Assembly (NCBI RefSeq): GCF_050320075.1
Contig: NZ_CP190025.1
From: Escherichia coli
GTDB taxonomy: Bacteria; Pseudomonadota; Gammaproteobacteria; Enterobacterales; Enterobacteriaceae
Direction: 5' to 3' (one strand)
Length of the DNA stretch: 5,772 nt
This document shows, one piece after another, positions 1,795 to 2,943 of this stretch. The position numbers and the translations under genes are program-made. Under the pieces are notes generated by a model. The model worked only from the letters and a program-made list of their open reading frames with translations. It made no database searches and was not told the DNA's origin. Every line of letters starts with the position of its first letter. Position 1 is the first letter of the stretch.

Positions 1795-2943
1795 TCATAA
1801 TATGATGGCTAGGAAGCATATTCCAATACCTATGAGCAGGTTCAACGTCATCATTATTTTTCTAAAAATACTGTTACAATTTGTTTTTAAAAAGAATGCT
1901 GATGGGATAATGAATACTGTTATTGCTATAATTGGGGTTGATAATGCAGCAATAACTTTTATAATTTCGAAATTGGCTTCGCCTGCTATAAATGTGATAA
2001 CAGATACGACAAAAACGATTAATGTTTTGTTTTTAAATCCAAGGGATACTATTGTATCAACAACGCCTGTTAGTGTACCTGTATATGCACCGCTGGTAAT
2101 TAAAATCATGGTTAATATGGAAATGTAAGCAACGAAACTATTTTTTGTTACGTTGGCGCTATATGATAATGCATCGCTGTTAATCTCGCGCATGTTTTTT
2201 ATGTCTGAAGGTGAGAATATATTGCTTAATGAGAACACGATGAATGAGATAAATATTAAAATTAATAGTATCCCAAACATGAAAAAACGTAAATCACCGG
2301 CTGTATCTTTTTTGTTTTGAGCAAAGCGTTGTATACATGGTGAAAAATTAAAACTAAATAAAACAACTGGAAATAGAGTAAGTAAATTACTTGTACTAAT
2401 ATTTTGTATTTCTGTAGAATGTGGATGTGCTGGATGTGAATAGAAATATATAGATAAGAACAGTACAATAAGCAAAGATGGAAATGCTATTCCTGATGCG
2501 AGATGCTCTATCTTTGAATTAAAAAAGATAAAAGAAGAACCAAGGGTTGCAGAAATAATCAGTGACACAAATATTCGCTCTGAACCATTTAGACTTAGGC
2601 TAAAGCAAATAATATTTATCATTGTTGTTATGTTTATAATTGCTATTAACAGCATTGATAATAGGAATGCAATACTGATAGCATTTGCGGCTTTTTTTCC
2701 GATAAATAATATGGCAGAACTAACGTATTCTTTTTTGTCTGTAATTAAAATGAATCTATAAAATGTAAATTGCCCTAATAAAGATACCAAAGATGATAAA
2801 ATCAGTATTGTTATTGTTCCGTGAGTTCCTATGACTTTGGGGCCTACAGTCTGGGGTAGGAAAAAAATCCCTGCCCCAAATGATGTTGCAAAGAATGTTA
2901 CTGGCCATTGGATGCTATTTATCTTCATTTTTGAACCTTTCAT
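1795..2943 (-). CDS. HAAAP-family (hydroxy/aromatic amino acid permease; SdaC/TdcC/TnaB/Mtr/TyrP-like) membrane transporter
   Basis: Highly hydrophobic multi-TM ORF. N-terminal motif SFGAGIFFLP and central motif FSFNFSP match HAAAP signatures recalled from SdaC (GTAIGAGVLFLP ... FSFNHSP). Start chosen at the ATG 2943..2941, which overlaps the upstream stop as ATGA. In-frame alternatives are 2979 (ORF-track start), 2952 and 2928; the last is preceded by AAAGG. Very AT-rich. Confidence 0.85.
   Translation of the reverse strand: MKGSKMKINSIQWPVTFFATSFGAGIFFLPQTVGPKVIGTHGTITILILSSLVSLLGQFTFYRFILITDKKEYVSSAILFIGKKAANAISIAFLLSMLLIAIINITTMINIICFSLSLNGSERIFVSLIISATLGSSFIFFNSKIEHLASGIAFPSLLIVLFLSIYFYSHPAHPHSTEIQNISTSNLLTLFPVVLFSFNFSPCIQRFAQNKKDTAGDLRFFMFGILLILIFISFIVFSLSNIFSPSDIKNMREINSDALSYSANVTKNSFVAYISILTMILITSGAYTGTLTGVVDTIVSLGFKNKTLIVFVVSVITFIAGEANFEIIKVIAALSTPIIAITVFIIPSAFFLKTNCNSIFRKIMMTLNLLIGIGICFLAIIL

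Follow-up and report, generated by a model that had tools for sequence, protein, structure and literature searches.

Where translation of a plasmid-borne permease begins, and whether that start is tied to the preceding gene by an overlapping stop and start codon, is the question raised by this locus. The window, by which we mean the whole 5,772-nt stretch of Escherichia coli DNA that was analysed, carries two consecutive minus-strand genes, one for a 296-aa protein and one for the permease. The preliminary description had proposed ATG 2943, not as a certainty, as the permease start and the four-base overlap ATGA as a device coupling translation of the two genes. We conclude from comparison of related sequences that the permease very probably starts at ATG 2928, which lies in the same frame 15 nt downstream of ATG 2943, and that the ATGA is incidental. 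The features of the junction are as follows.

1795 to 2928, minus strand: permease gene, 377 aa, with an MKINSIQWP start, as placed by PGAP CDS WP_072647583.1 and by homologue N-termini
2929 to 2939, minus strand: intergenic spacer of 11 nt, carrying the SD-like AAAGG (2940 to 2936)
2940 to 2943, minus strand: ATGA, in which the TGA stop (2942 to 2940) of the 296-aa gene overlaps an incidental ATG (2943 to 2941) in the permease frame, very probably not the permease start
2940 to 3830, minus strand: 296-aa gene, for a stand-alone class I aminoacyl-tRNA synthetase (aaRS)-like protein of a small uncharacterized family

The sequence elements in the preliminary description are present as stated. 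The 296-aa reading frame runs from 3830 to 2940 with the terminal codons TGC TTC AAA TGA; its stop overlaps ATG 2943, this ATG is in frame with the permease reading frame (2979 to 1795), and further in-frame ATGs occur at 2979, 2952 and 2928. In bacterial operons the 4-nt ATGA is the commonest overlap class and is associated with coupling, and this association, together with the in-frame ATG and its overlapping stop, speaks for initiation at 2943. Against it, ATGA occurs in the window at chance frequency (58 instances, compared with 58.5 +/- 6.7 in shuffles). The tetranucleotide is present here because the last sense codon of the 296-aa gene is AAA (Lys), followed by TGA; codons ending in A make up 41% of this AT-rich gene, and, with an in-frame probability of 1/3, about one in ten junctions should show such a configuration. 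The overlap is real, but it is incidental and ordinary, and not above chance.

Nor is the overlap conserved. Among orthologous operons the in-frame ATGA was restricted to the plasmid lineage of the window, whose members are at least 99% identical. In the 94%-identical sister plasmids (L002, L009 and L028) the spacer, at 10 nt, is 1 nt shorter than in the window (the allele in E. coli M19 plasmid C, for example, is AAAGGATAAAA), so that the ATG of the ATGA is out of frame and reads ATG AAA GGA TAA. The upstream stop in L003 and L004 is TAA, with no overlapping ATG, and in L003 and L004/5 an in-frame stop lies 6-12 nt ahead of the permease start. Chromosomal and large-plasmid relatives (L006, L007, L010, L020, L023, L149 and L150) have spacers of 38-134 nt; spacer lengths across the orthologous operons were 9, 10, 11, 38-61 and 134 nt, with tight spacing confined to the ColE1-plasmid clade. 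ATG 2943 would have come into frame recently, through a change in the window's plasmid lineage from the ancestral spacer AAGGATAAAA to AAGGTTCAAAA, a change that would also have removed the TAA codon that halts translation from that ATG in relatives.

The N-terminus of the permease gave a consistent picture. The eight permease homologues, whose identity goes down to 39%, all start MK(I/M/L), the chromosomal ones MRISY, and in every one this MK/MR start precedes the invariant Trp of the motif W-P-x-x-F-F-x-T-x-F-G-A-G by 7-9 residues, the position that maps to ATG 2928 in the window. The PGAP start is also 2928, in both the old and the new annotations. The SD-like AAAGG begins on the last base of the upstream stop codon and places its GG 6-7 nt from ATG 2928; in the window and in the plasmid relatives L002, L003, L005 and L009 an AAGG(A) precedes the conserved ATG by 4-7 nt, or by 4-6 nt when counted from the end of the duplex, AAGGA being kept at the junction in relatives, and the anti-SD duplex energy at this position is -3.4 kcal/mol in the window and -5.4 to -7.7 kcal/mol in relatives. 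For ATG 2943 the only SD candidate is a GGA 13 nt upstream, which is not properly spaced, and the five extra residues that this start would add (MKGSK) are seen in homologues only where the longer reading frame has been annotated. As ATG 2943 is not where initiation is conserved, its use is unconfirmed, and we regard it, and with it coupling through the 4-nt overlap, as extremely unlikely; the comparative evidence favours a different ATG, 2928, that the preliminary description had itself listed as an alternative.

The same listing included two starts still further upstream, ATG 2952 (385 aa) and ATG 2979 (394 aa), which would create overlaps of 13 or 40 nt with the end of the 296-aa gene. ATG 2952 has a GGA 4 nt ahead of it, and SD strength was rejected as a sole criterion of the start, given that 2928 (-3.4 kcal/mol, spacer 6) ties with 2952 (-3.3 kcal/mol, spacer 4) in the window. 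One gene caller did choose ATG 2952, yielding the 385-aa protein P0001 that serves as cluster representative, and in SdaC-type relatives about 25 residues precede the conserved Trp. However, stops or a frameshift shut the upstream extension in all relatives other than those of the lineage of at least 99% identity, PGAP uses neither ATG, and the region upstream of 2943 is conserved in the frame of the other protein, with 2979 to 2943 encoding the conserved C-terminus FFG[KT]SCF of the 296-aa product. We therefore hold a start at 2952 or 2979 to be very unlikely. Since annotation pipelines disagree (377 vs 385 aa), it is the comparative argument that settles the gene model in favour of 2928.

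Dual use of the two nearest codons, in this lineage only, was also considered: most ribosomes would start at 2928, and occasional re-initiation at 2943 would give a minor isoform longer by five residues, with no conserved function. The frame is open from 2943 to 2928 in the window's lineage alone, and bacteria are known to carry out termination-reinitiation at nearby codons, for which re-initiating ribosomes can do without an SD. The 2943 isoform nevertheless has neither conservation nor an SD and would be functionally neutral at best, and we judge its production unlikely.

With the start at 2928, the two genes would form an ordinary operon junction, in which TGA 2942 to 2940 is followed after 11 nt by the ATG and permease initiation would use the AAAGG. 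The ATGA does not qualify as a coupling device, being unconserved and in frame only in the lineage of at least 99% identity; coupling through the 11-nt spacer is possible. If there is any, it would operate via the short stop-to-start distance, ribosomes terminating on the SD and re-initiating 12 nt on. The UGAUG overlaps of the E. coli trp operon are a known example of short-distance coupling. As in operons coupled through an ATGA or a short spacer, the genes here are co-oriented and close, the stop falls under the footprint of a ribosome placed at the downstream SD and start codon, and the junction has no separate promoter-like site; unlike in ATGA-overlap operons, the overlapping ATG is very probably not the initiation codon, the layout being stop, 11 nt, ATG. 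An occluding mRNA structure at the junction was not supported (MFE -14.2 kcal/mol, z = -0.49, not significant). Our promoter scan of the two genes, which as a whole performed at chance level, found none at the junction; it gave one promoter-like site upstream of the 296-aa gene (3889 to 3860, minus strand, TTGATA-18-CAAAAT, 9/12 matches) and one other minus-strand site before the permease start, at 3393 to 3364, deep within the 296-aa gene.

A functional link between the two genes, which the preliminary description had drawn from the ATGA, is borne out by other evidence, namely synteny and transporter swapping. Synteny of the gene pair persists where the permeases are only 39-41% identical, and the 296-aa family adjoins a transporter in 18 of the 24 loci examined, the transporters belonging to four unrelated families (HAAAP-like, EamA, MFS and SLAC1/TDT). 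An MBL-fold partner is found in 12 of 20 loci and is missing from the window plasmid.

Calling the downstream gene a permease was right: by profile similarity the protein is a divergent member of the HAAAP (hydroxy/aromatic amino acid permease; Ser/Thr transporter-like) family. Although a Pfam search gave no match at threshold, TIGR00814 matched over the whole length (E=1.3e-23, profile positions 6-395 of 397) with a score of 83.8 bits, below the curated cutoff of 525.8 and so below the equivalog/subfamily level that would imply Ser/Thr specificity, and hhalign aligned the permease to PF03222-bearing transporters over 328 columns (98.5%, E=2.8e-15). Recent PGAP annotations read "amino acid permease" or "threonine/serine transporter". 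Like the HAAAP proteins (TC 2.A.42: SdaC, TdcC, CyuP, TyrP, Mtr; PF03222, TIGR00814), to which its profile similarity extends end to end, the permease has an N-terminal motif, T-x-F-G-A-G-I-F-F-L-P, that matches their G-T-A-I-G-A-G-x-L-F-L-P; it differs from them in being only ~25% identical, shorter (377 vs ~430 aa), and in its N-terminus, where only 7 residues precede the conserved Trp.

The 296-aa protein resembles a class I aaRS catalytic core in its fold and is a putative enzyme. It has the Rossmann-fold catalytic domain of class I type and no anticodon-binding domain. HxGH (HIGH) is not among the invariant columns of the family, the nearest being S81-G82-G83-H84 at the end of strand 78-86, and KMSKS is absent, the protein ending 7 residues past its last strand (285-289) with G-[KT]-S-C-F, in which the Lys is Thr in the window protein. 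The family's invariant set comprises SGGH, CxC, KPxC, PLCS and the C-terminal SCF. By topology, judged by eye, C228 and C262 are placed like C209 and H234 of CysRS, which suggests a putative correspondence; mapping the family's conserved Cys/His residues by sequence onto the CysRS/MshC zinc site failed, hhalign against E. coli CysRS 1-320 (CysRS sequence verified against 1LI5) giving a probability of 0.3%. Weak Pfam matches (MptE-like at E=0.023, Tad5 and ThsB_TIR) were at chance level. GT4 and PIG-L genes beside the L012 homologue had pointed to a role in a low-molecular-weight thiol pathway, analogous to that of MshC/BshC; this was dropped because the sister locus L017 lacks these neighbours.

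Beyond the two genes, on the other strand, lies an RNA gene that bears on what the aaRS-like protein may do.

3831 to 4006, no strand: divergent intergenic region of 176 nt between the aaRS-like and tRNA-like genes, holding the minus-strand promoter-like site 3889 to 3860
4007 to 4095, plus strand: tRNA-Ser-like RNA gene, found by Rfam tRNA (46.2 bits), ARAGORN and our own covariance model

Gene finders label this RNA tRNA-Lys(CUU). It has the cloverleaf of a tRNA-Ser: the body is of class II, the acceptor stem has 7 bp, the variable arm is long with a 6-bp stem, position 73 is G and the CCA end is encoded. Bona fide tRNA-Ser genes (CGA, GCU and UGA anticodons) have exactly the same acceptor stem and T arm. 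In place of a Ser anticodon in a 7-nt loop there is CUU (Lys) in the window and UUU in L004, while other members have anticodon loops of 4-6 nt on hairpins of 5-12 bp. The long variable arm and G73 are SerRS identity features (PMC5389517), and these elements are present in the RNA. Our covariance model scored 100 bits in the window and 82-108 bits beside the aaRS-like gene in 14 other loci; in the alignment 99.2% of cells are paired, the variable arm shows compensatory changes, and conservation extends to the acceptor, D, T and variable arms but not to the anticodon arm. The RNA thus adjoins the aaRS-like gene in 15 loci, distant taxa included, and the divergent orientation with a spacing of 176-194 nt recurs in L006, L020, L023, L082, L093, L097, L149 and L150. 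Among 120 metagenome stretches containing its 3' half, the enzyme gene was adjacent in 5/5 of this subtype and in 0/~115 of the others, and in two of two newly fetched plasmids the RNA was predicted and then found. It was not near the enzyme gene in the close relatives L003 and L010 (full-model search, filters off), and a default-filter search did not find it in the EamA-linked L014 and L016, the SLAC1-linked L025 or the alphaproteobacterial clade.

These absences from several enzyme-bearing loci are one reason to consider that the RNA gene has nothing to do with the operon, being either a decayed tRNA-Ser left at an integration site or, on the E. coli plasmids, a missense tRNA with a Ser body and a Lys CUU/UUU anticodon. 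Genomic islands often integrate at tRNA genes, the anticodon loop in the window's lineage has 7 nt, U33 and CUU, and Ser-type tRNAs with non-Ser anticodons occur naturally (PMC5389517). On the other hand, both halves of the RNA are nearly invariant, not just the 3' half, although the linked proteins are only 45-66% identical; the variable-arm stem is maintained via compensatory changes, on plasmids and chromosomes alike the RNA gene keeps a fixed distance from the enzyme gene and diverges from it, and no integrase is adjacent, on which grounds the att-site-remnant reading was rejected. The anticodon arm alone varies, and in most lineages it forms a hairpin of 5-12 bp whose loop of 4-6 nt would be unable to decode. 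We find an unrelated tRNA gene doubtful, and the label tRNA-Lys(CUU) on these plasmids is probably a misannotation.

The cargo of this ColE1-like plasmid, comprising the tRNA-Ser-like RNA, the putative enzyme of class I aaRS-like type without an anticodon domain, and the HAAAP transporter, appears to be a coherent unit. It has been annotated only as "hypothetical protein + permease (+ tRNA-Lys)" and occurs on small mobilizable plasmids in 21 of 5426 complete E. coli genomes (~0.4%), and also in Klebsiella and Salmonella. We put at about even the chances that this is a previously undescribed mobile module, in which a decoding-free tRNA-Ser mimic serves a minimal aaRS-like enzyme as dedicated substrate or cofactor and feeds a non-ribosomal reaction; a literature search by protein accessions and module descriptions returned no paper describing such a module. 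The mechanism, which we can credit about halfway, would have the enzyme act at the acceptor end of the RNA, which it would charge itself or use in the form charged by the host SerRS, the aminoacyl-RNA then entering the non-ribosomal reaction. The transporter would bring in the amino acid used as substrate or carry the product out, and in most loci the MBL-fold hydrolase would take part in processing, the module on ColE1-type plasmids of E. coli, Klebsiella and Salmonella being reduced to RNA, enzyme and permease. Anti-phage defence was considered and rejected: the neighbouring CBASS, toxin-antitoxin and PIN genes of L006, L003 and L014 do not recur, PADLOC matched neither protein, and no homologue was found in 50,697 phage genomes.

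The ATGA finding itself matters little, apart from correcting a start-site guess and illustrating that a striking ATGA can be a coincidence made or lost by one indel; the module matters more. If the RNA is the substrate of the enzyme, the two would be a naturally orthogonal tRNA/synthetase-like pair outside translation, and this would be relevant to tRNA biology, to aminoacyl-tRNA-dependent natural-product chemistry and to genetic-code engineering.

Known systems resemble the proposed pair in part. Among stand-alone class I aaRS-like proteins we compared the Cys ligase MshC, GluQRS/YadB, the cyclodipeptide synthases and SbzA, an Ile-tRNA-dependent transferase (PMC12945691). The 296-aa protein has no detectable sequence similarity to any of these, and, unlike the 296-aa protein, none of them has been reported with a dedicated tRNA-like gene. 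On the RNA side, the allo-tRNAs (Mukai et al. 2016, PMC5389517) and tRNA-like small RNAs such as the tRNA-Other of B. cereus share with our RNA a long variable arm, G73, a non-Ser or non-functional anticodon and a location on mobile DNA. The RNA described here differs in its standard 7/5 acceptor/T geometry, which is neither 8/4 nor 9/3, in its mostly non-decoding anticodon hairpin and in its specific link to one protein family.

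The window spans an entire ColE1-like plasmid, small (5772 bp) and mobilizable, and is identical to E. coli pSM107_2 (NZ_CP130671.1), whose backbone carries the mobilization genes MbeA/B/D and MobC together with Rop and RNAI. A cargo block at ~1650-4100 has about 30% GC versus 52–58% GC in the backbone; its low-GC boundaries fall at 1509-1795 and about 4096-4150. The features concerned are:

3830..2940, minus strand: 296-aa ORF (the enzyme gene), in the cargo
2979..1795, minus strand: membrane-protein ORF (the permease gene), longest form 394 aa, in the cargo
4007-4095, plus strand: 89-nt tRNA gene, called tRNA-Lys(CUU) (Rfam, ARAGORN)

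On the minus strand the 296-aa gene ends ...ACA TCA TGC TTC AAA TGA, with its stop at 2942..2940, and A2943-T2942-G2941 forms an ATG sharing the frame of the downstream ORF, in which further ATGs lie at 2979, 2952 and 2928; the preliminary description was correct both on this overlap and on the other in-frame ATGs. The overlap is unremarkable, as the window contains 58 ATGA tetranucleotides versus 58.5 +/- 6.7 in dinucleotide shuffles, and the ATG at 2943 exists only because the final sense codon of the 296-aa gene ends in A, which is the last base of 41% of codons in that gene.

The deciding evidence on the permease start was comparison among relatives (handles such as L002 denote related loci compared with the window). 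The sister plasmids, which are 94% identical (E. coli M19 plasmid C, L002; L009; VL46, L028), share ...TTCAAATGAAAGG with the window, and their spacer is 1 base shorter (AAAGGAT-AAAAATG versus AAAGGTTCAAAAATG in the window), so that the ATG of their ATGA runs into a stop (ATG AAA GGA TAA) and is unusable as a permease start. In a 78% relative (L003) and a 68% relative (L004/5) the homologue of the 296-aa gene stops with TAA (AAATAAAAGGATAAAACATG and AATTAAGGAATAAATATG, respectively), the ATG is missing from the ATGA position, and 6-12 nt upstream of the start the frame is closed by a stop; in more distant relatives (L006, L007, L010, L020, L023, L149 and L150) the spacer is 38-134 nt. All permease homologues have the N-terminus MK(I/M/L) or MRISY, starting 7-9 residues ahead of an invariant W-P-x-x-F-F-x-T-x-F-G-A-G-I-F-F-L-P-Q, which corresponds to ATG 2928 of the window. 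AAGG(A) lies 4-7 nt ahead of this conserved ATG, with a duplex-end spacing of 4-6 nt, in the window and in plasmid relatives L002, L003, L005 and L009, the anti-SD duplex being -3.4 kcal/mol in the window and -5.4 to -7.7 in relatives except L006 (-3.0), while upstream of ATG 2943 there is only a GGA, 13 nt away. In the window alone SD energetics do not discriminate 2928 from 2952, and one gene caller chose 2952 (385-aa permease cluster representative P0001); PGAP starts the CDS at 2928 (377 aa, WP_072647583.1) in older and recent annotations alike. The region 2979..2943 is conserved as the C-terminus of the upstream protein, FFG[KT]SCF (31 family members), and shows no conservation as the start of a permease. 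Only one plasmid lineage of at least 99% identity, to which 14 of the 21 positive E. coli genomes belong, has the ATGA in frame, a derived state that arose by AAGGATAAAA -> AAGGTTCAAAA. The proposal that the permease begins at ATG 2943 thus failed, the ATG there being out of frame or absent in relatives; the overlap is very probably a coincidence, with the permease starting at ATG 2928, and the junction is best read as an ordinary SD-led start 11 nt past the upstream stop. Elsewhere on the plasmid, the rop region (5159-5446, minus strand; 5139-5330 in related locus L001) has a longest ORF of 95 aa, longer than the annotated 63-aa Rop, and is like the permease a case where the first ATG of the ORF differs from the annotated start.

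The enzyme and permease genes look like a single operon from their sequence. Minus-strand promoter-like sites were found only at 3889..3860, upstream of the 296-aa gene, and at 3393..3364, deep within it, with none at the junction in a promoter scan that was overall at chance level. The stop codon of the 296-aa gene abuts the SD (UGAAAGG), so terminating ribosomes would sit on the permease ribosome-binding site, and re-initiation 12 nt further on would be plausible. The junction RNA had no significant structure tying SD access to upstream translation (z = -0.49), and the tight stop-to-start spacing is not kept beyond the small-plasmid clade.

The membrane protein had no Pfam match at threshold; it matched TIGR00814 (serine/threonine transporter) over its full length (E=1.3e-23; 84 bits versus a cutoff of 526), and its clade profile aligned to PF03222-bearing transporters with 98.5% probability. 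It is a divergent amino-acid permease of HAAAP type. The 296-aa protein, for which Pfam, NCBIfam, PADLOC and PDB sequences gave no match, has a class I aaRS active-site fold. It ends a few residues past the last Rossmann strand and so lacks both an anticodon-binding domain and a KMSKS loop; the HxGH motif is also absent. Invariant in the family are S-G-G-H84 (end of strand 1), C28-x-C30, E182-K183, K225-P-x-C228, P260-L-C262 and C294. The family is small (56 clusters at 90% identity; 41 representative clusters in 1.84 billion proteins; 8 loci in 100,044 species-representative genomes), and no homologue was found among 50,697 phage genomes. Between the same loci the enzyme is far more conserved than the permease, e.g., 66% versus 41% identity in L006.

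Among 24 non-redundant enzyme-gene loci (20 clustered plus L093, L097, L149 and L150), a HAAAP-like permease lies downstream of the enzyme gene in 12 (10 of the clustered 20, plus L149 and L150). Other lineages have an adjacent transporter of a different family, namely EamA (L011, L014, L016), MFS (L022) or SLAC1/TDT (L025). The commonest additional partner is an MBL-fold hydrolase (12 of the 20 clustered loci, plus L149 and L150), which is convergent and directly after the permease in L006, L007, L010, L020, L023 and L150; it is absent from the ColE1 plasmids, where the RNA, enzyme and permease are present. An alphaproteobacterial clade has NUDIX, enzyme and MBL genes without a transporter. 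The functional link proposed earlier between the 296-aa protein and the permease was borne out on synteny, for reasons beyond a view of the one sequence. In several loci the enzyme gene is interrupted by a frameshift or a stop:

L004/L005, 436-1327: split aaRS-like gene
L020, 6649-7570: split aaRS-like gene
L023, 7929-8893: split aaRS-like gene
L026, 7950-8935: split aaRS-like gene
L082, 2020-2911: split aaRS-like gene

Because these splits occur in several independent lineages, among them that of Edwardsiella anguillarum and that of the E. coli plasmid variant at 68% identity, they suggest recurrent decay of the module. The permease gene of L023 is split too.

Divergent from the enzyme gene, the RNA gene is found 176 nt upstream of it. 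It has a class II body with acceptor stem GGAGAGG/CCUCUCC, a 3-bp D stem, a long variable arm (6-bp stem), T arm GUAGG-UUCGAAU-CCUAC, G73 and an encoded CCA; a metagenome scan recovered bona fide tRNA-Ser genes from other bacteria in which the acceptor stem and T arm are the same. The tRNA-Lys(CUU) call is probably a misannotation of a tRNA-like RNA, and PGAP labels the equivalent gene in VL46 tRNA-Lys. Across loci sharing the RNA, whose linked proteins are merely 45-66% identical, wobble at one G-U/G-C and one U-A/U-G pair is the only change in acceptor stem, T arm, G73 and CCA, the D arm is nearly invariant, and the variable-arm stem is maintained by compensatory changes (AUAUGC:GCGUAU, ACACGA:UCGUGU, GUACGU:ACGUAC, AUACGA:UCGUAU); 99.2% of alignment cells are paired, versus 38-55% with partners slid. 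Only the anticodon arm varies freely: the E. coli plasmids have a 7-nt anticodon loop with CUU or UUU, and elsewhere the arm is a hairpin of 5-12 bp with 4-6 nt in its loop and cannot decode.

Across distant taxa the RNA and the enzyme gene are neighbours: in small plasmids (L002, L004/5, L009, L028, L062), divergent at 190-220 nt in L006, L020, L023, L082, L093 and L097, and co-oriented immediately upstream in L011 and L071; in L022, a Lentisphaerae MAG, it adjoins the MBL gene. Two checks starting from the RNA favour the association. First, 120 metagenome stretches with the shared 3' half included five of its D-arm type, all adjoining the enzyme gene; none of the remaining ~115, which were canonical tRNA-Ser genes or belonged to a separate soil group of unusual Ser-type tRNAs, had one nearby. 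Second, as predicted, the RNA was found in both newly fetched enzyme-bearing large plasmids, Salmonella pRSE21 and Enterobacter pasteurii p1, 191 nt upstream and divergent, with a tandem double copy in one. No copy was present close to the enzyme gene of L003 or L010 (full model, filters off), and a default-filter search found none in EamA-only L014 and L016, SLAC1-linked L025 or the alphaproteobacterial clade. Two copies stand in tandem in L149, at 4709-4811 and 4560-4662. In L011 two inverted copies, 5837-5924 (plus strand) and 12633-12720 (minus strand), bracket a 6.8-kb block with the aaRS-like gene, EamA transporter and MBL gene, then an Asp/Glu racemase, an MFS transporter, a radical SAM/SPASM gene and a 43-aa ORF. 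The separate Ser-type group is abundant in soil and rhizosphere metagenomes (among L029-L148, e.g., L057, L072, L074, L042 and L068); its acceptor and T arms are as in the RNA, its D arm differs (GCGAGAGYGGC...), and its anticodon loops are irregular, ARAGORN giving 2- or 4-nt anticodons ('ta', 'ccct') or assorted non-Ser ones. None lies near an aaRS-like gene, and the group may be connected with the allo-tRNAs or irregular tRNAs described in PMC5389517.

With gene order, the conserved start, the fold class, the structure and conservation pattern of the RNA, and its co-occurrence with the enzyme gene as observations, the gene pair appears to belong to an as yet undescribed module that combines a tRNA-like RNA, an aaRS-like enzyme and a transporter; literature searches by protein accession and module description found no description of one. 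For how the three would work we propose a general scheme, which we rate as an even prospect. Because the enzyme has an aaRS fold without an anticodon-binding domain and the RNA is a tRNA mimic conserved except in the anticodon arm, the enzyme would recognise the acceptor/T (and D) portion. Since a long variable arm and G73 are Ser-type identity features (PMC5389517), host SerRS could serylate the RNA; alternatively, the enzyme itself might charge it. Import of the amino acid or export of the product would fall to the transporter, which is HAAAP Ser/Thr-like in this plasmid and a non-homologous one in other lineages. Known aaRS-like enzymes with an aa-tRNA donor are the CDPSs, for which the acceptor arm suffices (PMC7672478), and SbzA (PMC12945691).
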